Below are positions 30,244 to 54,629 of a DNA stretch of 64,000 bases, in pieces (the first letter of the stretch is position 1; each line of letters opens with the position of its first letter). A model generated the notes under the pieces. That model saw only the letters and a program-made list of their open reading frames with translations, was not told where the DNA came from and ran no database searches. The stretch is from assembly GCA_965178125.1 (NCBI GenBank), contig OZ237770.1:434001-498000 (forward strand). The letters are read 5' to 3'. The translations under genes and the position numbers were made by a program. The DNA comes from Bilabrum cf. latius. Its lineage: Eukaryota.

Positions 30244-30273
30244 TGACGTAGTCCGAAAATAAAATAGGAATAT

Positions 30274-31246
30274 AATGTCATTATATTCCTATTTTATTTT
30301 CGGACTACGTCACGCATGCTTCACTTTTTTAATGTGTCCATATATTCACTTTTATTTTTTTATTTATTTATATTTTTTTGTATAATTAAATTTTTTATAA
30401 AATAATAATTTTGTTGTAATATATTGAATAATTATAATTCGTTACATGCTATACTTTTTATTTTTTTATAATATTTTCGCGGATTAAGATTAAATCAATT
30501 TATTGATTTTTATCAAAATTTATTTTTATTCGATAGAATGAAAATAATTAAATTCGAAGAATTTAATTTATAAATGGATCATCAAATAATATTTATTATA
30601 TTTCTATAATTTGTACAATTTGGCGGATGGCTCACATTTTAAAAAAAGTTCGCCAGAAAGCAGAAAATAAATTTATTTATTTTTTGTTTTCGTTTTTAAG
30701 AAATGGAAAAAGCATATTTATTTTATTATGGGAATTTTTAAGGGGTTAATCATTAAAATATTTTATTGCTTTATTTATGGCTCTATAATTTGAGTTCATG
30801 CATTGGGTCGCTCTCTTCGTTCGCTTAAAAGTGATATAGTAATAAAAGTTAGAAATAATATTATAATAATTTATTTTAATTAATTTACTGAGAAAGACAA
30901 TAAAATATTTTTTTTAAATTCTGTCACCAATTGAAAAAGTAATACAGATAACTAATAATATTAAATATTAATATATTAATGGAATATAGTAATATTTTCA
31001 GAATACTTGCCTATTATACTTTTTTTTAGAAGGGTGACAAAAGCGGTGACAAAACGTGATTTTCGAGGTCTCAGGAAATTTTTATTTTTAAAATCATATT
31101 TTCTGTAGAGTTCAGAATATTAATTTTGTCATCGGTTTTGTCATCAAAAAATTACAATTTATTAAAGGTGATGCTTAATTTTAAATTGGAGCTGTAATTT
31201 TGCATTTAACTCTTCGAATGTGTCATAAACATATATTTGAGAGGGT
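30274..31246 (+). repeat. Left terminal inverted repeat (~970 bp)
   Basis: Near-identical reverse complement of 56889-57855; the differences I noticed were homopolymer lengths and one substitution. Confidence 0.95.
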
Positions 31247-31549
31247 AAAATAAAAATATAAAATCAGGAACAAATCGCGACAAATTATATATTTTCTGAA
31301 TTGTCACGAGCTGGAGAACACAAAAATCATATTTATAAGTTACGTGCATTTTTATTTTAAAAGTTAAAAATTAAAAGCTATATAGATACACACTCAAAAG
31401 CATGTAGATATATATAAAACAATGTCTGGCTAACATGAACAACTCAAAAACAATTGACACATACACTCCAAGGCTATTAAATCCCTATATCGTATCTATA
31501 TAATTATACACAAGAAAAAAAAAAGCGAAAATAAAAACTATATATTTTT

Positions 31550-31553
31550 TCTA
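31550..31553 (+). promoter_or_regulatory. TCTA late-promoter motif (also at 32511, 34371, 49413, 50879, 52961, 53594, 56329 and before several minus-strand genes)
   Basis: AT-flanked TCTA 13-15 nt upstream of the ATG in eight plus-strand virophage genes; same core as the CroV/mavirus late promoter. Confidence 0.8.
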
Positions 31554-31566
31554 ACTATATAATATT

Positions 31567-32457
31567 ATGAGTCGTAATATTTATTTAACTGGACAATCCA
31601 GTGGAGCAAATGGGGCAGCTTCAATTGCTCGTGTAAATGTAAATAGACAAACAGATATTATAAGTGATACTACGGGATGGTTAATTTCAGTAGAACGCTT
31701 AATTATGAATAAAATTCTTCTACCCTTATTTGATCCAAACGCAAATAAACCCACTATATCATTTCAAAATATTAGTTCTGGTGTCGTAACTTCTGAGGTT
31801 GTTGATTTTTCGGCATTTGATGACCAAGACGGATATATTTATGATTATAGAGATGTCGCCTCGGCAATATCAAATACATTTAGTTCTTTATGTTCAACTT
31901 TAAGTATTGCAGATGTTCCCATAATGACATTTAATGTATCAACAAATAAATTTGAAATTGTTTCGGTTGGTGCTTTTAGATCTGCTTGGAAAATTGGATT
32001 TAATAATGATCTATTTACTTACATGCCATCTTTTAATTATGAATCTGTTTTATCATCTCCTTATTATATTGAACTGGCAGAAGACAGAGAAACACAATAT
32101 ACAAGCACACTTGAGCTTATGTCCCCTGTTTCTAGAATTGTAATTAAATCGAATCTACCAACTGAAAACGAACTTTTACCTCCCCCAATTAACCAATCTG
32201 ATGCAATCGCTGGATCTTCAGACAGTGCGGGTTTTCTAGTCGACTTTGATGTCCAACAGTCGAATAATCAGTCTGTTTCACTTATAAAATATAGTGCAAG
32301 AGATACTGACCATATATGGCACAATTTTAAAGAGTCTAGAAATATTAATTCATTCTATCTAGATTTTTATTGGTTTGACTATAATAATGTTGGTCATCCA
32401 ATCGCATTAAATAAAAATTCACAAATTGATATAAAATTATATTTTGTACAACAATAA
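31567..32457 (+). CDS. Virophage minor capsid (penton) protein
   Basis: 296-aa beta-rich protein directly upstream of MCP, mavirus-like order; C-terminal DFYWFD...IKLYF. Confidence 0.75.
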   Translation: MSRNIYLTGQSSGANGAASIARVNVNRQTDIISDTTGWLISVERLIMNKILLPLFDPNANKPTISFQNISSGVVTSEVVDFSAFDDQDGYIYDYRDVASAISNTFSSLCSTLSIADVPIMTFNVSTNKFEIVSVGAFRSAWKIGFNNDLFTYMPSFNYESVLSSPYYIELAEDRETQYTSTLELMSPVSRIVIKSNLPTENELLPPPINQSDAIAGSSDSAGFLVDFDVQQSNNQSVSLIKYSARDTDHIWHNFKESRNINSFYLDFYWFDYNNVGHPIALNKNSQIDIKLYFVQQ

Positions 32458-32527
32458 TAAAAATAATATAAGTTTTAATAATCAATTAGACAAAAATATA
32501 ATAATTTTTTTCTAATGTTAATTTATT

Positions 32528-34321
32528 ATGTCAAAATACTATAAAGATGTGGTCGTTATGATGCCATCAAACGAGAAATTTAAAGAGCCAAAAGACGTGA
32601 TGTTAGGGGCAAGAGCCTCTAATTCTGAGTCTATAAGACGTGTTATTCCAGCCAGTAATGGCTCACCTGATAAAGGTCAAGCAGGAACAATTGAATTTAA
32701 TTATAATTTCCCTAAGGGCAATGTGCAATCTGTGCCACAACTTCAGGCAGAGCTCACATTGACATTAAGAAAAATTAATAGCGAGGTGATTGCCGATAAT
32801 AAAGCGTTATTTGGTAAATTCGGAATTAGACAATTCGCATTAAATAGACTTATTGATAATGCCAAGGTAGAAATGAATGGGCACGAGTTCAGCTCCAGAC
32901 CATCACAAACAACAGAGTGTTTTGTAAATTCTCAACCATTGTCTCAATTGATGCGTTTGTCTGATGCTCCAGCTGGTCAATTTATGACTACCTACACAGA
33001 TAAATTTATTAATAACTCATTGCGTGAGGGTGCAAATGCTGTTGATACCGTTTCATCTAACGGGCTCGGGAATAACTGGACTTTCTCAGATGTTGCAGTT
33101 ACTGCAGATGGTGCAGGTTTTGTAAAAGTTGCATTAAAAGTTATCTATAGAGAGGTTATATTAGCTCAACCTTTCCAATACCATAACCCCAATCCAGTAC
33201 CCTTTAGAAACCTAAAGGACTTCAAGTGTCAATTTGACATTAAGGCATTGACTGGCTTGGTTGGTGACTTTTTAGTTGCTGACACAACAGCAGTTGACGC
33301 TACAACCACCGTTGAATGTACATCTTCTAAATATAGTTTACTTGTGCACACATGGAATCCAAGCTTAAACCCAATCATTCCTGAAGAAATCGTATATAAT
33401 GCACCCGAAGTAACTAAGTTGGTTTCTCAATCTCAAAATATTGTATCTGGTGGTACTGTTACCCAAAGAACAATAGAAACAAGCACATTTGTACTTAATA
33501 GTGTACCTACTGCACTTTTCATATATGCTAAAAGAGAAAAACTAACCGATGGTTTAAGTTATGGACAACCTGATGAATACGCATCAATTAAAAACCTTTC
33601 TATCGGAACAGCCCAGAAAGAAGACATCTTTAGTAACTACACGCAAAGCCAACTTTATGAAATGTCAGCGTCCAACGGATACAACGAAAGGTACGCAAAA
33701 TTTTCCCAGCAACAAGTGGGTGATGGTATATTCGGGCTTGGTTCAGTGCTAATTATTAAGCCTTCAGACATTCCTGCGGCATCTCAACAAGCCTTTATTA
33801 GTCACGCAAACGAGACATTTACTATGAAAGTTAAAACTCTATTGGATTGTCCAGTAACTGGAAATTATACACTTAATGTTCTAGCATATTATGACGATCT
33901 TGTTTTATTCAATGAAGGTGACAATGGCACTTATAAATCTATGAGACCTCTCATTTCTGGTGAAGTATTATCTAAAGCACCCGTTGTATACTCTGAAAAT
34001 ACCGCTCAAGATAACCATATTGTCGGTGGTTTCTCCTTTAGAGACCTAGGAAACAGCGTTTGGTCAGGCCTTACATGGCTTGGTCGTCAATTACAAAGAC
34101 CAGAGGTTAAAGCAGTATCTAGAACCCTAAGAAATTCAGGTCTTGCCCCTCAGGTAGCCGACGGCTCAGCAATTGGCGATTTTGTTTCTAGATTTGGTTA
34201 TGGAAAAGGTAAGAAAACCACAAAGAAAGGGGGTGATTTACTAAACATTGGTTCAGGCAAAAGCAAAGGAGGTAAAAAGCTAAGCAAAGCCCAATTAAAA
34301 AAAATGCTTGACCAAATGTAA
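32528..34321 (+). CDS. Virophage major capsid protein
   Basis: 597 aa, beta-rich, size and position as mavirus MCP; diglycine site IVGG followed by a basic C-terminal tail. Confidence 0.85.
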   Translation: MSKYYKDVVVMMPSNEKFKEPKDVMLGARASNSESIRRVIPASNGSPDKGQAGTIEFNYNFPKGNVQSVPQLQAELTLTLRKINSEVIADNKALFGKFGIRQFALNRLIDNAKVEMNGHEFSSRPSQTTECFVNSQPLSQLMRLSDAPAGQFMTTYTDKFINNSLREGANAVDTVSSNGLGNNWTFSDVAVTADGAGFVKVALKVIYREVILAQPFQYHNPNPVPFRNLKDFKCQFDIKALTGLVGDFLVADTTAVDATTTVECTSSKYSLLVHTWNPSLNPIIPEEIVYNAPEVTKLVSQSQNIVSGGTVTQRTIETSTFVLNSVPTALFIYAKREKLTDGLSYGQPDEYASIKNLSIGTAQKEDIFSNYTQSQLYEMSASNGYNERYAKFSQQQVGDGIFGLGSVLIIKPSDIPAASQQAFISHANETFTMKVKTLLDCPVTGNYTLNVLAYYDDLVLFNEGDNGTYKSMRPLISGEVLSKAPVVYSENTAQDNHIVGGFSFRDLGNSVWSGLTWLGRQLQRPEVKAVSRTLRNSGLAPQVADGSAIGDFVSRFGYGKGKKTTKKGGDLLNIGSGKSKGGKKLSKAQLKKMLDQM

Positions 34322-34387
34322 ATAGATTAATTTTATTGTATTAATTAAAAGATTTTAATTTAGATTTATTTCTAAACTAAAATTATT

Positions 34388-35566
34388 ATGACTCCTCCAC
34401 TTTCGAAAGAACAAAGGGAAATTTTAAGTAATATATATTATGATGAACATTTTTTATTTGGTCGTGATAAATTATATGAATTAGTTAAATCAAGAGGTTA
34501 CGATATAAGCAGACGACAAATAATGAACTGGTTAAAATCTCAAGAAAACTATCAATTATACAAACCAATTAAACAAAAGAAAACAGTTCAAGCAACAGTA
34601 TTAAAAAGACCTTATGAGCAGTTCGCCGTGGATTTAGTAAATGTCCAAGATATCGAAAAAAATAATAAAAAGTACTTGTTAACTGGCATAGACCTTTTTA
34701 GTAAAGAGGGTTTCGCATTTCCTATTAACAATAAGAAAAAAGAAACCGTATCAAAAGCATTAAAATTAATGATTGGACAATTAAATAAAAAACCATCAAT
34801 TATTAGATCTGATAATGGGAGTGAATTTAAAAATTCGGTTATGACTAAAATGTTAAAAAAAGAAGGAATAAAACAAGTATTCAGTAATCCCTATTCACCC
34901 GAGTCAAACGGTGGTATTGAACGTTTTAATGGTACTCTAAAACGCATGATCAATAAGTCTTTACAGCTTAATAAAGATTGGGTTAATCTTATTTGGGATC
35001 TTGTAGATGCTTATAATAATTCTAAATCAAGAATAACTAAATTTACGCCAAATGAAATTATTAAAAATAAAAAGTTATGGGAACAGGTTTATAAAAATAC
35101 TAGAAAAGAAGCAAAAAATAAATTAGTGAATGAAAGTCATATATTAAAAAAAGGGGATAAAGTAAGAATGGCAAACCTTGAGGATAATTTAAACAGAGGT
35201 CAAAATTTCAGTAAAAAAATATATGAAATTCAAGAAGTATACAAACCAAAGAAAACTTATAGTGTGCCTTCATATAAAATTAAAGGATTAAAAGGTAGAT
35301 ATTATAATGAAGATCTGCAAAAAATTAAATATGTAATGAATGAGCAAAAAGAAGAACAAAAATGGGTTATTTCAAAATTACTTAAACCTACATACAGAGA
35401 TGGCGAACCTAGTTATTATGTTCTATGGAAGGGTTATAAAACGCCTACAATAGAGCCAAGAAAGAATTTAATGGAAGATGTACCAAAATTAGTTAGAAAT
35501 TATGAACGCCTTTATAACGTTAAATGGTATCCAAAAACTGAAACCTTTGACTTTGATTTAAGATGA
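34388..35566 (+). CDS. rve (retroviral-type) integrase with C-terminal chromodomain-like region
   Basis: DDE motifs FAVDL, RSDNGSEF, NGGIERFNGTLK; C-terminal YYVLWKGY..PTIEP..NL. Confidence 0.93.
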   Translation: MTPPLSKEQREILSNIYYDEHFLFGRDKLYELVKSRGYDISRRQIMNWLKSQENYQLYKPIKQKKTVQATVLKRPYEQFAVDLVNVQDIEKNNKKYLLTGIDLFSKEGFAFPINNKKKETVSKALKLMIGQLNKKPSIIRSDNGSEFKNSVMTKMLKKEGIKQVFSNPYSPESNGGIERFNGTLKRMINKSLQLNKDWVNLIWDLVDAYNNSKSRITKFTPNEIIKNKKLWEQVYKNTRKEAKNKLVNESHILKKGDKVRMANLEDNLNRGQNFSKKIYEIQEVYKPKKTYSVPSYKIKGLKGRYYNEDLQKIKYVMNEQKEEQKWVISKLLKPTYRDGEPSYYVLWKGYKTPTIEPRKNLMEDVPKLVRNYERLYNVKWYPKTETFDFDLR

Positions 35567-36499
35567 ATTCAATTTATTCATGCAATTTAATAATATTTTT
35601 ATTTGTTCCTGTTTTGACTTATCATTAATCATTGATAATATGGCGTCTTCTGGTTTTTTATCATTATTATTAGATTGACAATATTTAGTATATGTTAACA
35701 TTTGAGTGCTTGGTGAATTTCCCATAACACGGGCTAAGTCTTCTCTTTCATCATTAGTAAATAATGTTCCTTTATTCATTTTCTCACTAATATAAACATT
35801 TCTAAAATCATTAATAGAAACTTTATTTTTAAAAATCTTGTTTAATATTTTTGTTATACTGGATTGGTCATTTTTTTTATTTGGATTCTTAAATGGAGAT
35901 AAAACATATTCACATTTATATTTTTCTTTAAAATGCTTACAGTAATATATTATACTATCTGGAACTTTAATATATTTGACACCATTTGACTTTTTAGTTT
36001 TATGATCGTATATGTGGAGCTCTTTTTCATCTAGTAATAATTTATTTTCTTCTTCGTGGTTGTCAGTATCTAATATTTTCGTTGTTAACCATTCCGTGAC
36101 TCTAAGAGGTGGCATATATGCGTAAAGAGATAAAAGCCATGCTCTATATTCATTCATTTTATTATTATTGCCTCCTTCAATTTCTTTTAATTTCTTTTCA
36201 ATATCAAAATATTTAAAACCTTTGATATGTTCCTTGGCATTTTTATTATAATATTTGTTGTTTTTTTTCAATTCAATTAATTGTTTATTTAATGTTTCAT
36301 CATAATGTTTATTTATTGCCTTACAAACTGTTATATATTTATGTAAAAAACTAGATTGGTTACTTTGTGGTACATCTTTTAAGTATTCCATTATTGGTTT
36401 ATCTTGTTTCTCTATTTTTTCATAGATTCTAATATAATCATTTATGCTTTTTTCGGCAAGATTGGGCTTTATATTTTGTATTTTTTCATAAAAAGACAT
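35558..36499 (-). CDS. Virophage tyrosine recombinase
   Basis: PPLR, HKTKK, INDFRNVYIS, LARVMGNS...TY in catalytic order. Confidence 0.8.
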   Translation of the reverse strand: MSFYEKIQNIKPNLAEKSINDYIRIYEKIEKQDKPIMEYLKDVPQSNQSSFLHKYITVCKAINKHYDETLNKQLIELKKNNKYYNKNAKEHIKGFKYFDIEKKLKEIEGGNNNKMNEYRAWLLSLYAYMPPLRVTEWLTTKILDTDNHEEENKLLLDEKELHIYDHKTKKSNGVKYIKVPDSIIYYCKHFKEKYKCEYVLSPFKNPNKKNDQSSITKILNKIFKNKVSINDFRNVYISEKMNKGTLFTNDEREDLARVMGNSPSTQMLTYTKYCQSNNNDKKPEDAILSMINDKSKQEQIKILLNCMNKLNSS

Positions 36500-37023
36500 T
36501 CTTTATATAATATATGCTTATTGATGCCAGAGTGTACGCGCAACCTAGTCTCGTTAACAATCAGACATGGCAAGACCTGACAAAGCTGTGCCTGTGCGCG
36601 ACCCTTGACCGGACTGACCGGGGCTGGGAAGAGCACGTGCACTACTCCGCCGAGGAGGAGGGGGTTGGGAGGGTGGGCAAAAATTACCCAATCTCCGCCC
36701 CTCTCCTGAACACAGAGAGGGTATGCGCGTCATCGCAAGCAATCCGTTGGCTTGGTCGCACCTTCCCGGTCGCAACCGCCATCGGAACCCAACGAGACGT
36801 TCACGCGCTCCCACTCTGGCATCAACACCGAACCCCATCCGGCGTTAGGATCATGATGCCAGAGTGTACGCGCAACCTAGTCTCGTTAACAATCAGACAT
36901 GGCAAGACCTGACAAAGCTGTGCCTGTGCGCGACCCTTGACCGGACTGACCGGGGCTGGGAAGAGCACGTGCACTACTCCGCCAAATCTTACCGCCATGT
37001 CTTGTACGCTGCGGCTGTGTGGC

Positions 37024-38082
37024 TCACTCCAAGTTCAGCCGCAGCGCGCTGGCCAGCACCCACACTGGCCTGTTCAAATCGAGGCTCCTGCCGCCGAGCT
37101 CCAGAGGAGGCAAACCTTCCCTGACGCTCCGCAAGTACACCTCGCATGCAGATGCCGACTTCCATCTGCCAAATCGCCTAATGACCTCGAAGGCGACCCC
37201 AGCACGGTCCAAACACATCACTGCCGCGATGCGGATGGAATGTCCGTGCACCGCTCCTGCAACTTCTCGTGAGCAGAAGCTGCGGAGCGCCCGTACTACC
37301 TGCGCCTTGACGATCGGCTTCGTGTTCGCCACGAAGACTGGCCCTGACGTGGGGCAGCTGAGCGCCAGCTACCGGGCGTAGTCTTCGTCTGCGCCTGCAG
37401 TTGGGGCGTGGCTCGCTGCTGCCCACGCCACGAAGGCTCGCACGCCGCAGAACCTGCTGCCTGTGACTGCCCATCGTCCGGCTCTGCAATGGACTGCGAT
37501 GGGCTCTGCGGCTTGGATGGAGAACTTGGCTGGGCCGTCGGCTTTGTGGAGGCCCAGGCGGATGGCAACACCATGGATGCGTCCGTCTCGCGTGATGAAC
37601 TGCACTTGCTGCCATTGGAGGCCGGCTTGTCGTCTGGACGCACCGACGAGCTCTCCCAGCCGGAGGCCCCCACAGAAGCAGAGACAGACAGCTGTCCGAG
37701 CAGCCTACTCTGTTGTGCTGCAACCGGCTGTCGAGAAGCACCGTCGGATTGCGCGGAGTGGGGCTGAAGATCGACGCAACGGGTGCGCCGATGGCGATGC
37801 TTTGTGGTAGTACCGGAGGATGCTGTCGAGCTAGCTTGACCGTGGGACGCCGCACGCACCTGTGGACTCGATGACGACTCGCTAGGCATTTCTGGTGTAT
37901 GTAGCGATGGTGCCGCCACTGAGAGGCGAACATTCCCCTAAGAAGACTGCGAATCTCGAGAGCGCTGCATTGAGCCTGAACGCGAAGAGTCTGCGAGCTG
38001 CTGGAAGATGCCCGTCCATGAAACTGCGGTCGATGTCGTACCACGTGAGGAAGTTGTCGAAGTGCCCCCACGCCGTGCGCAA
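37024..38082 (-). CDS. Retrotransposon tyrosine recombinase (4 in-frame TAG; start uncertain, overlaps the pol frame)
   Basis: CFCGGLRLGEL, HSIRIAA, RFGRWKS...VY in one frame via TAG at 37882, 37831, 37705, 37369; ends TGA. Confidence 0.88.
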
Positions 38083-41000
38083 CCCACTGAGTCCAGAGTG
38101 GCCACCAGCGTGAAATGGTCGTGCTTGTACAAGGTGTTCCAGATCGGCGTGGGACAGTCGACCTGATACACCGCGTCCAGGTGCGTGTATGCCTCCTGTG
38201 AGCCGCGGCTCAAAGCGTCCGCAACGACGTTGTCCTCGCCAGGAATGTGTTTCACGTGAATCTGCACATCTTGCGTTGTCTGCAGTACGAAGATAGGGCG
38301 AAGTAAGGCTGCCATGATGTGGCTCTTGGGTCTGCCGTAGCGTATCAGCTACACGGAAGCATCATTATCACACCACAAACGCACCACACGTCCACGCAGG
38401 TGCTGTCGCCAATGCGCCAGTGCCAACAAACATGTTGCAAGTTCTGCCGCCGCTACATCCTTCGCCTCTAGGCGATGCGGCCAAGTGCCCTGGATGCCGG
38501 TGTGCGAAGTGATGTTGCCGTCCTTGTCGTGGAGAAGCAGCTCGGCGCCGTAGCCTGTCACCGACGCATCAGTGCGAAGGATGGGACAGTCAATGGTGCC
38601 CCGCATCGGAAAGCTGCGCCCGCCTTTGCGCTGGATAGCCACCTGGAATCCCTCGAGGATTTCCCCAACTGTGAAGCCACCCTTGGACACAAAGGAGGTG
38701 GGGACCCACACCTCACCTGGTCGTGACCGGCTGGCCTACTTGTGAAGGGCCCAGCCCTTGGCGTCATACAGGGGACGTAGAGCACCGCGCATACCATAAA
38801 GTGCGCCCGACAGGAAGGACAACTTGCCGACCAAGGTCTCAAAGCTAGACAGCAGCATCCCCTTCGTCGTGAGTGCCTCGTGCAGTCTGCGCAGGACGTC
38901 GTTGGCCTTGTCCTTAGGGCACCGCACCTCGTGTTTGATCAAGTCGTAGGTGAGGCCCAAGTACTCGAACACCGGGGCTGGGGCCCCTTGCTTCAATGCT
39001 TTCGAGATGCTGACGGGGAAGTTTGTGGAGTCCAGCTGCCCCATGGCTCGAATTGCCCATGCATCGACTTCGTGATCTCCGCCGAGGCAGGCAAAGTCAT
39101 CTACAAACACCTCATTTTCGACCTACCAATGGCGGGACTAGTCTTGGGCCGTCTTGACATGTCCCGTTGTCGTGCTAGCGGCAGGCGGGGTGGACGTTGC
39201 TGACGAGTTCGCCTGGGGCGCCTGGTCCGTCGTGCTGGATTGGGCGTTGGCGTGCTGCTGCTTCCGGCGTCGTTGCTTCTGCTTGTGTCTCCGTCCGGGT
39301 CGCATGGCCCTGCCAATGGACTGCTCCTCGAGGGCTTGGGCCAAAGCCGAACTGATCGTAGTTGCGAAGGCGGGAGATGATGAGCTGCCCATAGAGAGCC
39401 TGAAATCTTGCACGATGCGCCCGTCGGGCAGCTTGATCAGGTTGTATTGGAGATCCTCCACTGCCACCGGCAGGACCCGAAAGTACGAGGAAATGTCGAC
39501 GACGTATCCGCTGGCACGCTTGGGGCAGGATCGAACTGCTGCGGCTGCCGAGCGCAGCACGTCCATGCTGCTCGTCTGCTGCACAGGCGTGGCTGCACTG
39601 TAGTCGATGGCCTTGTTCAGACCGGTACGCTGGCCGTTCACCTTGAGTGAGGAGTCCTGAAGGAACCGTAGCTTTGTCGAGTCCTTCTTGGGGATCACCA
39701 GCGGCCGGGCCCGGGCTGTGTCGAAATCTTTGGGTGACACGAAGTCACGCTCGCCAGCCCGCATGGAGCGCCCGATCTCGCAGGCGATCTCCCACTTTTC
39801 TTCCGGAGACAGCTTACGGTCCTTGTAGTCTAGATCGTGCTCTTTGGGCACCTCGTCCACGATGGCTAGGGGGCAACCATAGTTCAGTGCTGCCAGTACA
39901 CGCTCGACTCGTGGGAGGGCTTTAAACTCGGCAAGGGACGGGGCCTTCCTCGGTGTGCGGCCGCCAAACAGAACCTCCCGCCGGGTCCGCAGTGTTGCAG
40001 TCTAGCGAGGCACCTTGTCGAAGTACTTGCGTGGCGTGAATGCCAGCGGGTCGTCGTGAACCTTCAGGTGGAGCCGCTCACGGTCCCACGTCGCAGCTGG
40101 AGCCTCCACGAATTCGCCGGGACAGTCTCTGGTACGCTGGTGATCGTCCTTTCGCTGTATGAAGTCCTCGACGGAGGGTGCTGTCGTCCCTGCCCACTCA
40201 TGGCTTGGATCCGGAGCTGGATATGCCCAGTCAACGAATGCTGGAGAGATGTCCGTCCTACCTGGCAGCCTCGTGGATGACGCCGTGGGCGGCCGCTGCG
40301 GTCGCTTAGGGCGCGCTAGGGCCACCAGGACTGGGTGAAGCGCGGGCGTTGACGTGACAGGTGGTGTGGAAGCAGCACACGCGTCCGATGTGGTGGTAGT
40401 CTGCGTACGCCCCTGCGGCAGTGTTGGTGTTGGAGTGCTGGGCTGGCTCTGACGTGACGTACCTCGTGGGGGGGGGTCAGGTGAAGGCTCCTTGGACTTC
40501 CTGGTGGAACCCCCGTCCTGCCGGTCCGCACGCTGGTGCTGGCCACCTTGCTGGCCTGCGCCGCCACGTCCACGGCCTCGACGGTGTCGACCTCCGCCAC
40601 GATCGGCACTGGGCTGGTCGCTGTCACCCCCGCTGCGCCTGGAGCCTCCACTGCCCCCGCCTCCACTGCCCCGGCCTCCACTGCCCCCGCGAGGGTCGAA
40701 GTGACGGGACAGTGCTGCTCGACGGGACGGCGCCTGCATGTCAGCCTGGACTCCCTGTAGCAGTCCGCGCACGAGGCCAGGTTCGCCTGATCTGCATGCC
40801 TCAGTGGCCCACGGATGCAGCAATTGTAGGAGACGCATGCAGTCGCCAGAAGAGCACGAAGGAATCTCATTCCCAACAAGGTCACGAATCTCAACGTCAC
40901 AGCGTTCGCCTGTATGGCGCCAAGCATGGGAGGAGAGCATCTCAAAGGCTGAACTTCCGCGTGGTATCACACACACAGCGGCAAACACCACCTCTAGTCG

Positions 41001-42929
41001 GGACGCCGATGCAGATGATGCCCCGGAAGCACTAACCAAACGAAGAAAATCATTGCGAACCTGCCCCAGGGTTTTCCAATCGGGCACTAGTGATGCTGGA
41101 CACGACCACGAGCTGCTGCCCTGCGGCAACCAGGCCGGCAAGGACGCCGTCGAATGCGCGCAAGCAGCGCGCACGAGCACACAGCCTAAAGCAAAGGAAA
41201 TAGCCGAGTAAATAGTGCATAGTAACTCGCTAGATGGCACCTACTTTTCTCGTCCGCCTGCAGCAGACGACTCCGAGTTGGACGCATCAAACTTCCCAAA
41301 ACTGGCATTGCTCATCGGCAGAGCTGCATGAAGCCGGCTCGTGAACGAGAAAATAGCCGATTCAATCTTGGCTCTCGTCACGGCCTGACCAAACAGGGCA
41401 CGGGCCAGTTCTGCAGCGAAATCGCGGCCGCTAGCGTCCAAATGAAGCGCGTCAGCCTAGCAAAACCGCGGCATGAACGCGGATTGGCGAAAGATCGAGG
41501 TCAACGTTGCCAAGAAATCATCAGAAAACCAATTCTGCATTCGAATTGCAGCGATTGAAGGTGCAGAGGCCTCACGCTACAAAATCTCCACTGGTTGCGA
41601 GCGAACGACCGCGGAGTCCACTGCCGTGCCTGCGCCCGGTGAAACTGGGTCAATTGAAGACGCAGGCTGCGGTGAGGCAGAAGATGACACAGGAGGTTCA
41701 CGGGGTGGCTGATGAGCGGGTGTAGCGTCGACCGGTGGCGGGGATGAGTGCATCGAGGCTGCTAGTCGGTGCGAGAAGTACCATTGCAATTCCACGTGGG
41801 CGGAGAGGTGCGACAGCAGCTCTTCCTGGCGCAGAGTCGGAATGCTGTGCCACAGCGCAAACAGGCGTAGATGCAGAATTGTCGCTGGGTCGGCCGTTCC
41901 CCGCAGCGTCGTGGAGTGCAACACTGCCCGTTGGAGATCCCCAGGAAGGCGGCCCCAGACCGCGTCAAGCTAGCGGCTGGTGCCCGGAGTCACGCCGGGG
42001 GAGTCGTAAGCCGGAGACACACGAGGAAGAAGAAGCTGAGGGCCTGCCGGGCCCGTTGACCGTGATGCTGCACTGCTGAGCGCCTCCGCGAGCACTGTCG
42101 GATCGCCGAAGTCCCGAGTGCCTGGCCTACCGGGGAGCCTGCCCGAGGCAGGTGGAGGTTGGTGCCGCGGGGGTGAAGACGTTGAGAAGTTGGGCTGTCC
42201 GCTGCGCTGGGTATCTGCTGCTGTCCCCGGGGGCCCTCGGTTCGGGGACTCGTGCAGGTGGGCCCGCCCGCCTCGCGCGAGCGGGGCCTGCCGCGTCGTC
42301 GAAGAGCCTGGCCGCGCCCGCAAGGGCGAAATTCCGCGGCTTGTCCTGGTGGCACTCTACGCCGCTCGGTCGCGTCCAGGTGAAGCATGGATGGCGGCGC
42401 CGAAGTCGAGGCGTCCGGGTGGCCGATGCTGTCCGCGAAGAGGAGCGGTCCGCCGGCCCGTCGGTAGTGAACTCAGGGACCATGGAGACTCGATTGAAGA
42501 AGGAGCCTCTGGAGATTGCTGAACAGGATGAAGATGTACTTGTCCTGCGAGTCGCTCAGGCTGTTGCCGTCGAGGAGAGCTCGGCGACGCCGGCAGAAGC
42601 AGCCGTGCACCGAGAGTCGTTAGCGTCCCATTTGACACGAACTTGGCGAGAGCGGTGCTCTTGACAGCATTAATGGACCGTGATGCCGTGAAGGACTGCT
42701 TTGATGAGTACCTGTCGAGCAAGTAGCACAGGAACCCCGCATCGTGTGCACGTTGAAGATCGGGATCGCAAAAATTACCCAATCTCCGCCCCTCTCCTGA
42801 ACACAGAGAGGGTATGCGCGTCATCGCAAGCAATCCGTTGGCTTGGTCGCACCTTCCCGGTCGCAACCGCCATCGGAACCCAACGAGACGTTCACGCGCT
42901 CCCACTCTGGCATCAACACCGAACCCCAT
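37218..42929 (-). CDS. Retrotransposon gag-like/RT/RNase H polyprotein frame (12 in-frame TAG; exact ends uncertain)
   Basis: One frame from ATG 42929 to TGA 37218 with only TAG; RT motifs VIPKKDS.KLRFLQD, VDISSYF, LSMGSSSSP, FVDDF, YLG; RNase H motifs TDAS..GYG, AEL, CDN, HIPGEDNVVADALSR. Confidence 0.85.
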
Positions 42930-42984
42930 CCGGCGTTAGGATCAATAAAAAATATTGTTTAAATGCGTTTTAAACTGTTAATAT

Positions 42985-43641
42985 TTATGTTTTTTTTGTG
43001 TGGCAAGAATAACAGCGATAATAATTAGAATCCTTTTTTATTGTGTACTTATTACAATCAATGCATTTTTCTTTTCCTGTTTTCTTTGTCATGTAACAAT
43101 CAAAACATCTTAATTTATATTGACTTTTCGGTATCCAATCCCTACAATCTAGACATTTTTGGTTATATTTAAACATCATATTATTTTCTTGGTGTTTATC
43201 ACTTTGACAATGTGTCACATATGAACCTCTTTTTAATACAGAATCGCATTTTTCACATTTTACGAGCATGGTGTTTTTGTGCACTGATGAATTCATTGGA
43301 AATAGCCCAGTTATGCATGTACTACCAATCATAAAATATTTTTCTGGTTTTTGCTTTTCAAATACTAAATAAGGATATTTTAATTGCTTACCACATACAC
43401 AAAAATATGTGGTCTCCATTCCTTGCTCATTTTTTTTTGATAAAACCAAGTTTCGTTTGTAATTATAGCATTGCTTGTAAAGTTTTTTAGCCATGCTCTT
43501 AATTTCTTTTTCAGATGTCATATTATTGTAATTAATAGAATCGAAATTTTCAGTATCAAATTTTTTATCTGAATTTTTCTCAATATAATCTAAACACTTT
43601 TTGAGACAAATAGTTTTATTATCTTTTGCTTTTTTACACAT
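42985..43641 (-). CDS. Cys-rich zinc-ribbon protein
   Basis: CVCGK, IGSTCI and multiple CxxC pairs. Confidence 0.65.
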   Translation of the reverse strand: MCKKAKDNKTICLKKCLDYIEKNSDKKFDTENFDSINYNNMTSEKEIKSMAKKLYKQCYNYKRNLVLSKKNEQGMETTYFCVCGKQLKYPYLVFEKQKPEKYFMIGSTCITGLFPMNSSVHKNTMLVKCEKCDSVLKRGSYVTHCQSDKHQENNMMFKYNQKCLDCRDWIPKSQYKLRCFDCYMTKKTGKEKCIDCNKYTIKKDSNYYRCYSCHTKKT

Positions 43642-43668
43642 GTATATTGATACATACGAAAAAAATGT

Positions 43669-43890
43669 TTAAGTGGTTTCAGTATTTTTTATACCTTTTT
43701 TCCTTCTAGTTTGTGCGTTTTCTCTATTGATTTTTCTTAATTTTTCTTTATGTGCTTCATAATAACGTTTATTCTGTATCCTTTTTAGTTCCTGTTTACT
43801 TGGTGAATATTCAAACTCTTTTAATTGTTCCAGAGTAATGTTAAGTTTTTTTAAAATATCACTATCAAGATCTATAATGAACTTTTTCAT
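43669..43890 (-). CDS. Small basic hypothetical protein
   Basis: 73-aa ORF with upstream TCTA motif. Confidence 0.6.
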   Translation of the reverse strand: MKKFIIDLDSDILKKLNITLEQLKEFEYSPSKQELKRIQNKRYYEAHKEKLRKINRENAQTRRKKGIKNTETT

Positions 43891-43930
43891 ATAAATTTAG
43901 TATAGATAATTTTTTAAGTATATTAAGTAT

Positions 43931-46432
43931 TTAAAAATCTAATGCGTTCTTTTTGTTTCTAATGATTGTTTTCTTTTTTGCTACTATTTCTTCACCATGA
44001 TATTCTAACAACCAATTTTTATTTTTGCATATCTTCATTATCTCACTGGGGATAAATGATAATTGTCTTGATGTCTTGGTTCTCTTTTCAACAATTCCAA
44101 AATGTGTTTCAAGATCATTATAAAATTCTGATTTATTTAATTTCTTATTGCTTAGATTATATTCTTCCTCAATGTATTCTTTAAATTTCTCGAATAAACT
44201 AGTTTTATTTGTAATGTATTTTTTAGTGTAACTTGTTGATTTCCAATATTCGGGGTAATCTTCATCAACAACATCAACTTCATCATCAGCTTCAAACTGG
44301 CAAGTTTCAACAAAATTAATAAGAAATTGAATTTTTTTATTTACACATCTCATCATTAACTTACGGTATGCTTTGGTAATTGGTCTTTCTTTCTGGAAAT
44401 TATTTATTTGAATATCATAAGTGCCTAGATGATAATATACAGCATCACAAAATGATTTATGATGTTCTTTATTTGAACCATATGCCTCATAAAAATTCTC
44501 AAAGAAATATTCAGTTTTTTCATTTGGTTTAAAAGAATCAAAAACAACAAATCGACGTTCTCCAGTCATTGAATCAATATAAACGGGTACTTTTTTATTT
44601 GATACAAATAATAACCTTGTATAATTTAATGCTGACACTTTATTTTTGTTTTTAAATTCATAATGCCATGTGTTGGATGTTGTAAATTGTTTAATTCTTC
44701 CTGTTAAGTCACTTCCTTCTTCTGATTCTTCAAGATTGAATAATAATTTACCCATTAAGTAACCATTAAAGCCGTCATATAATACACGACCCGATGCCTC
44801 ACTTAAAATTTTATCTTTACTAAATATCCATGTTAATATTTCGGTTATACTTGATTTACCGCTTCCTTGGTCACCTGTTACAATAACGGAGGTTGACGTT
44901 TCTTTTTTGGTTGGGTTTTGTATCATATCAGCTAACCACTGAATCATATAACTAACAAATCCCTTATTATTGTTATCATCACCAAGAGCATAACCAATTA
45001 ATTTATATAAATGTTTTATGTATGTGTCATAATTTTCTGGTTTCTTTGGTATTTCTGGTAGAGGAACATGCATATTAAAATTATTTTCTTCAATGCTCTT
45101 TTCAATATCATTACCAAGATATACTCCAACGCTGTCATAAATATGTCTATTAGTATCAAATGCATATTTCTTAAGAAAGGGTAGCCATACTTCAATATCA
45201 TTCCCATCTTCATCTTTTTGATTGTTTCCCAATTTATCTTTTTTAATAATTTTATAGTTAGCACCATTAATAAGTGTTGCTAGTTTAGAAGGTTCATAAG
45301 AATAACAATATTTATAAGATTTTTCATAATAGCAGTTTGCAGATTTAACATATCCAAAAAACATTTCAAAATATGTTTTCATTGTTTCGTAATTCTCAAG
45401 TTTCGACATAAATTTAAGGTCGAATTGTTTCATTGCTTTATTGTTTACTGAATAACTAGAAAGATCGACCCCGAAGGTTTCCATTTCCTTACAAATATAT
45501 TTTATATCTAAATCAAGATTGGTTTTAATGTCATGCTCAACCTTCTTAATTAATTTAGTTAATTCTTTTTCAATATTAGAATCTTTACTAAAAGAAGAAT
45601 GATAAACATTTAACCCATCGTGCACAATTGCATTAACCTTAAATTCAGATTCTTTGATATGTCTTTCAAGTGTATCTATGCATTTTCTTTCATATTTGAA
45701 TAAAAGTTTACATAAAAATGCTCCTTTCTTGTTCTTCTTATCACCTTTTTCAATTGATTTTTTTAATTCTTCACCATCGAACAACTCCGCATTTTTCCAT
45801 ACATAATTTTGAATCTTGCGAGATTCTAAAGCAAAATCAATTATAAAATCTAACATTTCACCATCAAGTTCTTTTTTATCTTTTTTGAATTTCAAGTTAT
45901 CAAAATCAATTTTATCAAAATCATTATCTTCAATCCATGTTTGAATAGAACCGCCAAATAATAGACATTGAAAGACTTGTTTTACTTGACCCCTGTTTAA
46001 TGTTACATCATTTTTTTTGAATTCTTCAATGATGCTTTTAATAACATCTTTACGGTTCTTGCAGTAATGGGATAATTTAGGGGTTTTTAATTTCTTCAAT
46101 AGAGAATTAAGAATTGAAGGGCATGAGTTGACAATATCAACGTCATAGCAAAAATCAGCAATTAATATATTTCTAATGGTTGCATCAATAGTTTGTAATG
46201 AAATACCTTTTGTGTATCTTCGGCCTTCTGATTCTGTGTAAGTTGTTGGAATTTTTCCATATTTGTCATTGTATATTAAACACTTACTAAGCATTTTTCC
46301 AACTTTACCATAACATTCTTTTAAATATTCCTTTCTTGACTTCATCCATTCATTTTTAGATAAGGCAGAGGTAAAGGCTAATTTTACGAGGTTGTCATAA
46401 TTGACTAATTCGGATCTTACGAAAGCAGACAT
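43931..46432 (-). CDS. PolA-like (TV-Pol type) primase-polymerase fused to SF3/D5-like helicase
   Basis: N-terminal GRRY...SLQ, DVDIVNSCP, IVHDGL; C-terminal Walker A GDQGSGKS, LEE, FVSN, ERRF. Confidence 0.8.
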   Translation of the reverse strand: MSAFVRSELVNYDNLVKLAFTSALSKNEWMKSRKEYLKECYGKVGKMLSKCLIYNDKYGKIPTTYTESEGRRYTKGISLQTIDATIRNILIADFCYDVDIVNSCPSILNSLLKKLKTPKLSHYCKNRKDVIKSIIEEFKKNDVTLNRGQVKQVFQCLLFGGSIQTWIEDNDFDKIDFDNLKFKKDKKELDGEMLDFIIDFALESRKIQNYVWKNAELFDGEELKKSIEKGDKKNKKGAFLCKLLFKYERKCIDTLERHIKESEFKVNAIVHDGLNVYHSSFSKDSNIEKELTKLIKKVEHDIKTNLDLDIKYICKEMETFGVDLSSYSVNNKAMKQFDLKFMSKLENYETMKTYFEMFFGYVKSANCYYEKSYKYCYSYEPSKLATLINGANYKIIKKDKLGNNQKDEDGNDIEVWLPFLKKYAFDTNRHIYDSVGVYLGNDIEKSIEENNFNMHVPLPEIPKKPENYDTYIKHLYKLIGYALGDDNNNKGFVSYMIQWLADMIQNPTKKETSTSVIVTGDQGSGKSSITEILTWIFSKDKILSEASGRVLYDGFNGYLMGKLLFNLEESEEGSDLTGRIKQFTTSNTWHYEFKNKNKVSALNYTRLLFVSNKKVPVYIDSMTGERRFVVFDSFKPNEKTEYFFENFYEAYGSNKEHHKSFCDAVYYHLGTYDIQINNFQKERPITKAYRKLMMRCVNKKIQFLINFVETCQFEADDEVDVVDEDYPEYWKSTSYTKKYITNKTSLFEKFKEYIEEEYNLSNKKLNKSEFYNDLETHFGIVEKRTKTSRQLSFIPSEIMKICKNKNWLLEYHGEEIVAKKKTIIRNKKNALDF

Positions 46433-46631
46433 AATATATTATATAATTCTATATTATTTTTATTATTTTAAGTGCGTTTTTTCTTAAAAATACACTTAAA
46501 AAACTTAAAAGGTGACATTGAATATTTGAATTAAAAAATTTGTCATTCATAAAAAAAGTATAATAGTATCCTAATAATGGTTATTATATAAAATATTTAG
46601 TATTAATATTAATTTAATTTTAATTATCCCT

Positions 46632-46769
46632 CTATATTACTTTTTTTTGGAAAGGGTGACAAAAGCGGTGACAAAACGTGATTTTTGAGGTCTCAGAAAA
46701 TTTTATTTTTTGAAATCATATTTTTATTGGACTTGGAAATTCTGATTTTGTCACCGCTTTTGTCACCCT
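46632..46769. repeat. Internal copy of a TIR sub-segment with perfect 24-bp inverted arms
   Basis: AGGGTGACAAAAGCGGTGACAAAA (46653-46676) and its reverse complement (46746-46769); resembles TIR segment ~31011-31145. Confidence 0.9.
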
Positions 46770-46777
46770 AAAATATT

Positions 46778-47341
46778 TTAATGAAAAGCCATTGTGACGA
46801 TTTCATCTATTGAATGTCTATTTTTAAGTTTCTTTTTTGCCTCTTGCATTAGTTGATTATATTGATCGTTTGTAAGATCGGCATAGTGTACGCGGTTTAA
46901 TGAGTGCCTTCCACAACTCGCAATATGAGAACCTTCTCCTTGATGCTTATATGGTGAATAATCCACGTCATAACCGCTATCGAGTAAACGCCTAATTAAT
47001 GTATTATTAGATTCTTGATATAAATTCAAATCTGCATATTTTTTTTGCCCAACATCGGGGAGTCCGCCGTAACTATCATAAAAATATATTGTATTTCCCT
47101 TTTTTGTTAAAGCTACATAATGCCCCGATGTTGCATTTCCTTGTTTAATCATTGGATAAAATACAATTAATTTATTATCTCCTTGAAATAATGATTCAAT
47201 TGATGGAGAATTTATAATATCGTCATATAATACAACACGAGGAGGTGGACCTTTAGTGTGTGGGTGTTTATTCCATAGTTCTTTTAATTCTTGAGGACTA
47301 AGATATGTCCCAACAAGTTGTTTTAATTTTTCTCTATTCAT
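46778..47341 (-). CDS. Virion maturation cysteine protease (adenain-like)
   Basis: SGHYV, FYDSYG, HQ...SCGRH catalytic H/D/Q/C order. Confidence 0.88.
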   Translation of the reverse strand: MNREKLKQLVGTYLSPQELKELWNKHPHTKGPPPRVVLYDDIINSPSIESLFQGDNKLIVFYPMIKQGNATSGHYVALTKKGNTIYFYDSYGGLPDVGQKKYADLNLYQESNNTLIRRLLDSGYDVDYSPYKHQGEGSHIASCGRHSLNRVHYADLTNDQYNQLMQEAKKKLKNRHSIDEIVTMAFH

Positions 47342-47379
47342 TAATATAAATAATGACTAGAAAATTATTCAAACTTTAT

Positions 47380-48441
47380 TTAAATTTTTATCGCTTCCTT
47401 TTGACTTATCATATAGCCTATATCTGGGTTTATACTAATCCATCTAGATTTTTTCAATGCTAGTTTAACCCTTTTAATTTGTTCTTTATTGAATCCTAAA
47501 TAAGTTCTTAATAAATAATTACGTTCATGGTCTGTACCTTTACTAAAAAATACATAATCGGTCGTTTCAATTTTAATTAACTTCATATGTGCACCATCTG
47601 ACCCTTTGTGATTACATATAATTAAATTAGTCTTAGTGTGTCTCCCCTTGGTTAATAGGGTGTCCCTTAAAAATTCAATCTTTCCAATATCTGGGTTATT
47701 TTCGTAATCATCAAATAAAACTAATGAATCTTGAAATATAGCATCTCTTGCTTCTTGATCTATTTTAAACTCAAATTTATCTTTGCCTTTTCCGTCTGGT
47801 TTCATATCATGTAACATTAATTCTAACTTCATTAGCATTTCTGGGTCATCTGCATACATTTTCTTTTTGTATTTAAATTTAATCTTTGCTTTTTCATACT
47901 CTTTTTTTGCGTCTTCATGACTCACATTTTCACCAACTAATGAATTAATATCTAAATATTTTACTTTTCCAAATTTAGAATCTTTGACATCCGTGATCAC
48001 ATAAATCTTTTTAATTCCAAATTTTCGTGACATTTCCATTATTTCGGTTGAAAAATATGACTTTCCAGAACCAGACTTACCATTTAAAAAGAATACGAAT
48101 CTATTAAATGAGTCATCTTCAGTATGACCTAGTGAATACGGAATAACTCTAAACATTGATTTGTCTTTTATCTCTTCACTGTTGAATTTTTGGGCTTCTT
48201 CTGTTCCATTATATAAATTTATTAATTCTTGCTTTTTCTGTTCTTTAGCTTTCTTTGATCTTACCGCATGAGTTCCAAAGATTGCGTATAATTGGTCATC
48301 CGTTATATCTTCGGGCTCTAATTCTTTATTTTTACATTCATTGTCATAATATAATACTTTATTTTTGCTTTGCTGGTTATTACCTGTATATTTACGGTAT
48401 GCAATGGGTATTGAATCATCTCCTCCGCTGTAACTAAACAT
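47380..48441 (-). CDS. FtsK/HerA-type (A32-like) genome packaging ATPase
   Basis: Walker A GKSGSGKS, Walker B LVLFDD, KGRH...IICNH. Confidence 0.9.
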   Translation of the reverse strand: MFSYSGGDDSIPIAYRKYTGNNQQSKNKVLYYDNECKNKELEPEDITDDQLYAIFGTHAVRSKKAKEQKKQELINLYNGTEEAQKFNSEEIKDKSMFRVIPYSLGHTEDDSFNRFVFFLNGKSGSGKSYFSTEIMEMSRKFGIKKIYVITDVKDSKFGKVKYLDINSLVGENVSHEDAKKEYEKAKIKFKYKKKMYADDPEMLMKLELMLHDMKPDGKGKDKFEFKIDQEARDAIFQDSLVLFDDYENNPDIGKIEFLRDTLLTKGRHTKTNLIICNHKGSDGAHMKLIKIETTDYVFFSKGTDHERNYLLRTYLGFNKEQIKRVKLALKKSRWISINPDIGYMISQKEAIKI

Positions 48442-48534
48442 ATTATAATTTAGTATAGATAATATTTATATAATAGAAAATATTTTTTGAATTTGACAAA
48501 AAAAGAAAGGTAGTCATGCAACAATTTTAAAATG

Positions 48535-49383
48535 TTATTTAATTAAACGCTTGAATGCCTTAATTTCGTTTTTAACGTCATTTGTGATATAAGAATGTAA
48601 TTTTTTCATAACTTCTTTTTGTATTTTACTAATATTTTTCATTTTAAAATCTGATTTCTTAAGATCCAAATGAAACATATTCTTTAATCTGACCATTAAA
48701 TCCTCCTTTATGTTGTTCATCACAAAGTTTTTAGTTGCCGTTGTATCTCGTACATTTTTAAGTGCTTCAAGTCTGGCATTAGTAAGATATAAAAAACCCA
48801 CATTGTCAGAACTTAACAAACTATTAATTTCTTCCATTTTATCGTCGTATCCTGTTCTTCGGTATATCTCACGCAATCTCTTAAGGGCTTTATAATATTT
48901 TCCTTCTTTTTCCAATTTCATGGCGTCTTCTATTAAATCTTCTGTTATTTCATCTTTAGTTTTTCCCATAATTGAATCACCAAAATCATAAATTATCGTA
49001 ACCTCTTCATAATACCCATTAGTAAATACTATTAAATCAAGTTTAACCCATTTTTTATCTTGTTTAATATACTTTGGGTTTTCTAGTTCATCAGCAAGTA
49101 ATTTGATAGCTTTTCTTTGTGTTCCTGCTTTCTTTTTACCTATTTTAAGTTCACTAACATCTATGTGATCACCAATGTCAATTAGAAAGCTGAATAGTTC
49201 ACGTAAAAGCAGTTTATATTGTTTCATTTCTAATTTCATATATAAATCGAGATCAGAAGCAAAAAATGAAATAGGGAAAGAACCATTTAATAACATATCT
49301 GCATCTTTTATTAACATAAGATCTTTAAACAATGCGGAATGGTCAGTATTAAATAGTTTGATGGTTTTATTGTTAATTTCCAT
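48535..49383 (-). CDS. Putative Pol-beta-superfamily nucleotidyltransferase-fold protein
   Basis: LNGSF...ASDLDL and later KLDL; start placed at ATG 49383, downstream of a TCTA motif. Confidence 0.5.
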   Translation of the reverse strand: MEINNKTIKLFNTDHSALFKDLMLIKDADMLLNGSFPISFFASDLDLYMKLEMKQYKLLLRELFSFLIDIGDHIDVSELKIGKKKAGTQRKAIKLLADELENPKYIKQDKKWVKLDLIVFTNGYYEEVTIIYDFGDSIMGKTKDEITEDLIEDAMKLEKEGKYYKALKRLREIYRRTGYDDKMEEINSLLSSDNVGFLYLTNARLEALKNVRDTTATKNFVMNNIKEDLMVRLKNMFHLDLKKSDFKMKNISKIQKEVMKKLHSYITNDVKNEIKAFKRLIK

Positions 49384-49431
49384 TATATAGAATAACATTA
49401 GATTAATTTTTTTCTAGTGTAAATATATTAT

Positions 49432-50826: not shown

Positions 50827-50897
50827 AATTAAAAATATAATTGTAAAATAATATATTAAATTAAAGTTAGAATAAATTTCTAATCTTAATTTATAAA

Positions 50898-52946: not shown

Positions 52947-52977
52947 ATATAAATTTTTTTTCTAATAATATAGTATT

Positions 52978-53550
52978 ATGAGTATAAGCAATTTATTAAC
53001 TTCAAATAACCTAGACTTAAAAGCTAATTCTATTGATGCAATAGATGTTAAAAAGAAAGGTCAAGCTTTGACATTTAATGGATATCACTTTGTCCAAAAT
53101 AGAGGAAATGGAACTACTCCTATAACTTTAAATGCTCCAGGAAATATTTTCGATGGATCAACTTTTACCGTTGCAGATACGGCATTATCTATCATGGGTG
53201 GAACGTACAATATGCCAATAGACAACACTTATAATTGTATCATTAAATGTAATATGTCATTTATTAATACGAATACTTCAGCTGTCAGATCTGCAGGTAT
53301 TGCCTTTCAATTTCAGAATGCCTCAGATGATACATGGGATATTAACCCTTCTAATTGTCCCGTGATGTGGCATGTTATAAATCCTGAATCTGCCCAAACA
53401 ATACAATTAGTACATTCATTAGATTCAGATCATGGATATAAAGCAGTACGTTTAATGTTTGCTGGTGAGAATTCAATTGATATTGATTATAGCTCAAATA
53501 ATCCAACTAGAATATGTTATTGCACTTTAGAACGTTTCTATAGTTTGTAA
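52978..53550 (+). CDS. Putative short fiber/spike protein
   Basis: Shares N-terminal MSISNLLxxNNLDLxA with the upstream protein. Confidence 0.55.
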   Translation: MSISNLLTSNNLDLKANSIDAIDVKKKGQALTFNGYHFVQNRGNGTTPITLNAPGNIFDGSTFTVADTALSIMGGTYNMPIDNTYNCIIKCNMSFINTNTSAVRSAGIAFQFQNASDDTWDINPSNCPVMWHVINPESAQTIQLVHSLDSDHGYKAVRLMFAGENSIDIDYSSNNPTRICYCTLERFYSL

Positions 53551-54619: not shown

Positions 54620-54629
54620 ATATATTCAT

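Follow-up and report, generated by a model that had tools for sequence, protein, structure and literature searches.

The window analysed here is a stretch of 64,000 nucleotides (nt) from contig OZ237770.1 of the assembly GCA_965178125.1 (Bilabrum cf. latius); positions are those of the window, and other contigs of the genome are called C1, C9 and so on. A GC-rich block of 6.4 kb on the minus strand (36522-42944) splits an AT-rich element, an endogenous virophage (30244-57857), in host DNA of ~60% GC. From its repeat layout, domains and motifs, the block is assigned as a Ngaro-type tyrosine-recombinase (YR) retrotransposon. Its reading frames contain TAG triplets that are sense codons, and gene comparisons show that the host reads TAG as glutamine (Gln, Q). 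The features of the retrotransposon, which comprise open reading frames (ORFs), including a reverse transcriptase (RT), between split direct repeats, are as follows.

42768..42944, minus strand: split direct repeat A1, 5′ end TGATCC; 100% identity with A2 across 177 nt
42766..42770, minus strand: deletion junction; 237 nt absent relative to full copies, 2-nt microhomology
38070..42767, minus strand: fused ORF1 (Gag-like)-RT-RNase H frame; 10 in-frame TAG; native start absent in the window copy
37218..38069, minus strand: C-terminal run-on of the polyprotein frame over the YR gene; 2 TAG; unconstrained
37024..38361, minus strand: YR frame, open for 445 codons, 4 TAG
36854..36983, minus strand: repeat B1, 130 nt, 100% identical to B2; the B1-A2 junction matches the joined ends of the element
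36677..36853, minus strand: repeat A2, 177 nt, 100% identical to A1
36522..36651, minus strand: repeat B2, 130 nt, 3′ end GGCATCA

The nested Ngaro element and its family

The repeats follow the order A1-ORFs-B1-A2-B2, and the identity of both pairs, which the original prediction for this locus had noted from the letters alone, is complete over 177 nt (A) and 130 nt (B). With TAG read through, the frame from 42929 to 37218 extends for 1904 codons, in which TAG occurs 12 times and TAA and TGA not at all, and the YR frame is likewise interrupted by TAG only. The catalytic motifs that were said to survive in these frames can indeed be read: VVDISSYF, LSMG..SP and FVDD for RT; TDAS, E, DN and ADALSR for RNase H; and R, HSIR, W and Y for YR. 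Pfam gave clear support for RNase H (RVT_3, E = 1.9e-6; RT_RNaseH, E = 0.0046), a weak match for RT, whose motifs are present (RVT_1, E = 0.06 only), and a modest one for YR (Phage_integrase, E = 6.8e-5, below the family cut-off). Neither frame had a Pfam match to the methyltransferase domain that is present in DIRS and PAT elements. The Gag-like upstream region is long and under selection; it had no match in a Pfam search, and a single-sequence model of its fold was of low confidence (predicted local distance difference test score 44), with no fold match. A hidden alternative frame within ORF1 was rejected in a frame-by-frame analysis of polymorphisms.

A genome search with the element returned 58 matches, and 31 of 113 candidates were scored. 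Nine copies are full-length: that in the window, at 6423 bp, and eight others of 6651-6660 bp that are 98.8-99.9% identical. Six of these eight have both frames open and are undeleted after A1, one lacks 9 nt of the leader, and one is frameshifted. The window copy is not intact, as it had been thought probably to be: in the nine-copy alignment it lacks 237 nt immediately 3′ of A1, comprising the 5′ leader, the ORF1 ATG and ~70 codons. The ATG at 42929 sits within repeat A and is in frame with the polyprotein only because of this deletion; in the seven 6660-bp copies, a TGA closes the repeat-A frame.

Among 30 loci fetched, 16 distinct deletions were found, that of the window copy being one. 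Each begins between nt 173 and 178 of repeat A, the point of resumption varies widely within the element, and most junctions have 0-3 nt of microhomology. In DIRS-1, transcription starts downstream of the left repeat, which is restored from an internal copy (PMC7192593). By analogy with DIRS-1, we infer that the breakpoints at the end of A reflect a jump to A2 during reverse transcription, with A2 serving as the template for A1. Most likely, the window copy was defective from the outset, its cDNA having ended early in reverse transcription and jumped to the end of A2; since the start of ORF1 was lost with the 237 nt, it would be non-autonomous, yet it keeps all four repeats and could be mobilised in trans. 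Two deleted copies at different loci (C15 and C12) resume at nearly the same internal base, which suggests that a deleted copy was recopied in trans.

Two full copies at different loci showed 0/6660 differences, and the window copy differs from them at 7 sites, an identity that assembly polishing may have inflated. The family appears young and is probably active; the prediction of a young, potentially active element thus fits the family but not the window copy itself, with its deleted ORF1 start. In a virophage on C1 that is 99.7% identical to that in the window, the window insertion site is empty, and the C1 virophage holds its own Ngaro copy where the window virophage is empty. In both comparisons, insertion was exact, with no target duplication and no loss. 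Flanking DNA was ≤43% GC in 28 of the 29 copies with an end in view, and 22 of 32 copies have a capsid match at a distance of 20 kb or less. Integration without target duplication, seen at these two sites, would occur mostly into AT-rich endogenous virophages, and the recombinase may act on an intermediate in which the B and A ends are joined. The family was also present at ~98-99% identity in contigs of four public sequencing runs; no RNA run was listed among the runs containing the element. The runs that contain 69-84% of the element's words come from four studies and bear four distinct organism labels; they may represent related strains or interspecies transfer.

Ngaros nested in the endogenous mavirus-like elements (EMALEs) of Cafeteria burkhardae have been described (PMC8547959), as the original prediction stated. 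They resemble the present family in the order A1-ORFs-B1A2B2, the size of ~6 kb, the GC-rich insert in an AT-rich virophage and the RT, RNase H and YR domains, and further in their solo AB repeats, 5′-deleted variants and preference for virophage DNA (PMC8547959). The Gag-like region and RT share one frame here, whereas C. burkhardae has separate ORF1 and ORF2, and deleted copies have AT-rich flanks here (15 of 16 ORF1-deleted copies), whereas the ORF1-less copies of C. burkhardae are in host DNA (PMC8547959). Reactivated C. burkhardae virophages were without Ngaro inserts (PMC10945749). This makes routine carriage of Ngaros by virophages less likely, and the transfer to a new host that the original prediction envisaged stays hypothetical. 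Halocafeteria is described as lacking Ngaros (10.64898/2026.07.28.741278).

TAG in the retrotransposon and in the host

In 9/9 full-length copies, TAG stands at 11 of the 12 polyprotein sites and at all four YR sites, so that 15 of 16 are fixed; the random, copy-specific TAGs, with CAG or TGG in other copies, that would have indicated decay were not found. The twelfth polyprotein TAG and two further sites (in two copies) alternate between TCG and TAG. All four YR TAGs were present in 18 of 20 full-length genomic YR matches, and no variant at the fixed TAG sites was seen among 40 of the 85 variant rows listed from the run contigs. Up to the YR overlap, the polyprotein frame has 70 synonymous and 64 non-synonymous polymorphisms, for an expected synonymous share of 0.265 (p = 2e-10), and the YR frame has 8 and 5 (p = 0.007), while the ~290-codon tail over YR, with 2 and 11, is unconstrained. 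The TAGs of the element are therefore sense codons, and both frames are under purifying selection outside the tail that overlaps YR. The only homologue found (57% identical) covers four TAG sites, with Q at two, A at one and a gap at one. At least four other, more distantly related YR-retrotransposon families occur in the genome (YR 31-64% identical), with 0-4 in-frame TAG each.

The same triplet is found within conserved host genes. The 28 dynein AAA_6 matches have 20 in-frame TAG and 0 TAA/TGA. In 19 aligned stretches of paralogous dyneins, Q stood opposite TAG in 25% of cells (CAG 24%, CAA 20%); when TAG columns were sorted by majority residue, Q was first with 18 and E next with 5. In a partial alignment with human dynein-2, read by eye, Q was opposite ~7 of the ~15 TAG positions visible. 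Prp8 has 4 TAG in 2791 codons, and TAG is the only in-frame stop triplet in an RNA polymerase subunit. Within the window, a host glycosyltransferase-like frame (11013..15266, plus strand) contains 13 in-frame TAG, with a Pfam GT1 match (E = 4e-6) near the C-terminus, past several of them. The five host gene ends that were read are all TGA or TAA. Taken together, these genes show that the host reads TAG as Gln and that TAA and TGA stay stops; as predicted, the element uses the variant code of its host. Since TAG makes up similar shares of the Gln codons in the element (14 of 90) and in the dyneins (103 of 1145), host and retrotransposon follow a single codon regime, and the three regimes envisaged for the locus were rejected.

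A nuclear tRNA with a CUA anticodon (C23:907607-907679, minus strand) scored 69.8 bits with Rfam, where scoring covered 63 of 780 tRNA candidates, and would decode UAG. Its D-arm and discriminator are like those of the genome's tRNA-Gln(UUG), while its acceptor stem equals that of tRNA-Tyr at 6/7 positions; given these mixed identity elements, its Gln charge is deduced from the proteins rather than from the tRNA. The eRF1 gene (C35, about 455870-457420) has two in-frame TAG and a terminal TAA, so that the synthesis of eRF1 would itself depend on UAG read-through. One TAG is at an exon end and the other at position 69, which is Q in PDB chain 8ip8_bl and L in two other chains. The motif TAVNIKS replaces TASNIKS; the role of the eRF1 motifs is described in PMC5304391.

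UAG = Gln with UAA and UGA as stops is known from Iotanema spirale and the ciliates Hartmannula sinica, Trochilia petrani and Protocruzia tuzeti (PMC5304391, PMC9161772, PMC11687900). The present host, by contrast, seems to be a flagellate unrelated to these, and its mitochondrion resembles that of bicosoecids. A tRNA gene with a CUA anticodon was found here but not in Hartmannula or Trochilia, and eRF1 here keeps GTS alongside TAVNIKS and the TAG-encoded position 69, whereas Iotanema eRF1 has T32G. No variant nuclear code is mentioned for C. burkhardae in the main text of PMC8547959 or in the available part of the genome paper (PMC6972860), making TAG as a sense codon in Ngaro a further difference; the Halocafeteria genome preprint likewise does not mention a code change in the part available (10.64898/2026.06.25.734631). 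A literature search that excluded subscription papers and supplements found neither a bicosoecid nor any other stramenopile with a reassigned nuclear UAG, and no virophage written in a variant code.

The mitochondrial contig C111 (38.4 kb) contains an atp8-like ORF-atp1-atp6 cluster and ten tRNAs found, which include one with a UCA anticodon and no tRNA-Thr. Cafeteria and Cafileria mitochondria have tRNA(UCA), no tRNA-Thr and the same atp cluster (PMC6723347). No nad11 or nad9 was recognised among the ORFs of its first 38 kb; a 1063-codon ORF follows rps2 (rps4-like by eye), and atp1 has an insertion. No Cafeteria protein, and no close named relative, was among the best 120 matches of Prp8 or Cox1, and the only named Cox1 match among those listed was Saprolegnia (78%). 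The host is probably a bicosoecid-like stramenopile.

Virophages with and without TAG

The features of the virophage in the window are listed below.

30244..57857, no strand assigned: mavirus-like endogenous virophage with nested retrotransposon; TG...CA ends, ~1 kb terminal inverted repeats, 5-bp target duplication ACCAC
31567..32457, plus strand: minor capsid (penton) protein, E = 2e-45 to 6G41
32528..34321, plus strand: major capsid protein (MCP), E = 6e-56 to mavirus MCP 6G45; CAA 26, CAG 4, TAG 0
34388..35566, plus strand: rve integrase, Pfam rve E = 3e-16
46778-47341: candidate protease, no Pfam or PDB match
47380..48441, minus strand: putative packaging ATPase (P-loop), weak Pfam P-loop matches only

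The MCP is much closer to that of mavirus than to that of Sputnik (E = 4e-8 to 3J26). As in Mavirus and the EMALEs (Maveriviricetes), the MCP, penton and rve integrase are accompanied by terminal inverted repeats and a short target duplication (PMC9952930, PMC10945749); the first of these sources lists four virophage marker genes. Unlike in those viruses, no protein-primed polymerase was recognised among the virophage ORFs of the window, and the capsid lineages of the genome are diverse and mostly recoded.

The 19 virophage genes of the window contain 203 Gln codons (CAA 175, CAG 28, TAG 0) and end in 16 TAA, 3 TGA and no TAG. A general avoidance of the triplet was rejected, as off-frame TAG is plentiful (130 and 91). 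The window virophage is thus TAG-free and readable in either code, but not demonstrably standard-code. This state, in which the original prediction saw a codon regime of the virophage's own, is exceptional: in-frame TAG was present in 56/61 genomic capsid matches and 65/74 ATPase matches. TAG stands for Gln in at least seven virophage capsid lineages, which are divergent and in several cases present in many identical copies, and capsid genes of other families carry 4-15 TAG in identical multi-copy form. The alignment partners of viral TAGs were TAG (394), Q (193) and the next most frequent residue (41). By these counts, most endogenous virophage families of the genome are written in TAG = Gln, and would thereby be tied to TAG = Gln hosts. 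The five TAG-free capsids comprise four copies of the window family and one unrelated element on C9, and C14 has another stretch, of 5 genes, without TAG. A sister virophage on C37, with a 60% identical capsid, has TAG at 26 of 113 Gln codons in 10 orthologous genes, versus 0 of 107 in the window virophage (p = 7e-9).

A quick capsid tree was built from 58 capsids, of which 48 were environmental rows (≥500 aa or close fragments) taken from the best 55 of 150 listed. The C37 sister is placed between its two TAG-free relatives, and neither the TAG-using nor the TAG-free capsids group together as a clade. Scans of IMG/VR and metagenomes returned no relatives of the capsid genes. A motif scan gave five contigs, one of which is a virophage, and the other four had no match to the virophage proteins of the genome. 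In one environmental virophage whose layout is the same, TAG never occurs inside the 15 genes and ends one of them at most.

The endogenous viral elements of Streblomastix strix use the host's table 6 (PMC10120064) and are alike in being integrated DNA viruses in the variant code of their host. They group with Trichomonas-type capsids and have both TAA and TAG recoded, whereas here mavirus-like virophages have TAG only, and recoded and TAG-free sister lineages are found together in one genome.

Several observations concern the arrangement of these elements. A solo AB repeat at C37:154504-155888 splits the ATPase gene of the TAG-using sister, whose capsid gene has one TGA break. At C9:365000-391000, TAG-using and TAG-free virophage segments adjoin near a Ngaro copy and are probably nested virophages. 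Each of the five capsid genes without TAG has a Ngaro copy no more than 20 kb away, versus 17/56 TAG-using ones (p = 0.004; 4/5 versus 13/56 at 15 kb), in a count of small numbers and related copies in which the window itself is one of the five. The left end of the window virophage opens with a perfect 34-nt hairpin (30244-30312), one arm of which is repeated directly at the right end (57817-57855), and a 133-nt segment at 46642-46774, possibly a promoter or origin, is 82% similar to part of the terminal repeats and has a palindromic core. The host DNA contains tandem arrays at 60655-61868 and 62833-63992, with periods of 131 nt and 86 nt.

Competing explanations and what they imply

We consider it likely that these observations belong together: a TAG = Gln host; a young, recoded Ngaro family; a window copy that was born defective; virophages that are mostly recoded; and, in the window, a TAG-free lineage from standard-code hosts. 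The Ngaro family would be recently amplifying and long resident in TAG = Gln hosts, with TAG as an ordinary third Gln codon, and the simplest account of the TAG-free state would be that hosts with the standard code are, or until recently were, home to the window virophage lineage. Besides the possible inflation of copy identity and the Tyr-like acceptor stem of the CUA tRNA, the following points weigh against this reading. Three sites in the element vary between TCG and TAG and none between CAG and TAG; eRF1 keeps GTS, unlike that of Iotanema; no tRNA-Gln(CUG) for comparison was found in the genome by pattern search; and the host code is known here from genes alone. The deletion in the window copy is read from the assembly and not from locus reads, and the junction bases (7 A2-type, 1 A1-type, 8 uninformative; p = 0.07) are by themselves a weak signature of an A2 template. 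The capsid tree is without bootstrap and its labels are unclustered, so that it says little about the origin of the TAG-free state.

One alternative is a standard-code host with a decayed element, whose TAGs would be sequencing errors or nonsense mutations. Decay does occur in the family, which includes the frameshifted full copy and a diverged copy with 2 TAA. We nevertheless give this hardly any credence: the TAGs are fixed among copies, TAA and TGA are absent, selection is purifying, and the host dyneins, Prp8, RNA polymerase subunit and eRF1 carry TAG only. A standard-code element in decay was rejected on the fixed TAGs, these TAG-only host genes and the Q at TAG columns. It is very unlikely that UAG is ambiguous in the host, meaning Gln inside genes and stop near transcript ends; the host gene ends read number only five, but none is TAG, and capsid TAGs located 1-2 codons before the stop align with Q or TAG in sisters, or adjoin Q. 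The window copy itself might still be autonomous, translated from the repeat-A ATG that the deletion fused in frame, given that 79 whole codons were removed and that the fused frame is open across 1904 codons. This we regard as unlikely, as selection acts in sister copies on the ~70 N-terminal codons that are missing here (aa 1-130: 10 synonymous, 11 non-synonymous), and the fixed breakpoints at the end of A suggest an RNA start near the end of A1, downstream of the repeat-A ATG (compare DIRS-1, PMC7192593).

The TAG-free virophages could alternatively be long-term residents that avoid TAG, either because a helper giant virus makes it unreliable or because UAG decoding is slow in highly expressed genes. 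A release factor is one possible example of the former, as some giant viruses encode eRF1. Such selection would fit the quick tree, in which two TAG-free relatives with 74% identical capsids (window and C40) flank the TAG-using sister, and the finding that no examined TAG-free gene ends in TAG. However, the other families keep 4-15 TAG in capsid genes that are present in identical multiple copies, and the environmental virophage with the same layout is practically free of TAG as well. The lack of TAG stops is thus to be expected of a standard-code virophage too, and the TAG-free state is accounted for equally well by a standard-code origin and by selection. We consider long-term avoidance doubtful, and return to the origin in standard-code hosts as the likelier account.

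UAG-only reassignment is rare, and variant codes as a barrier to viruses are well studied in bacteria and phages but, to our knowledge, barely in eukaryotes. The nested Ngaro as such is of a known sort; what is new is an apparently undescribed TAG = Gln host with recoded virophages beside a TAG-free minority. We tentatively suggest that an undescribed stramenopile UAG = Gln code splits the mobilome, with retrotransposons and at least seven capsid lineages locked to the code, and TAG-free virophages as code-neutral generalists that shuttle between code types. If so, the helper giant viruses should be recoded or TAG-free themselves. The series of deletions fixed at the end of repeat A offers a way into the question of how elements with split direct repeats restore their ends. 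Recoded virophages and retrotransposons may be undercounted, since standard-code gene calling would shatter them. As recoded and TAG-free sister virophages coexist in one genome, codon use could indicate how long a virophage has been resident and how wide its host range is, and a TAG-free virophage may move between hosts with different codes.

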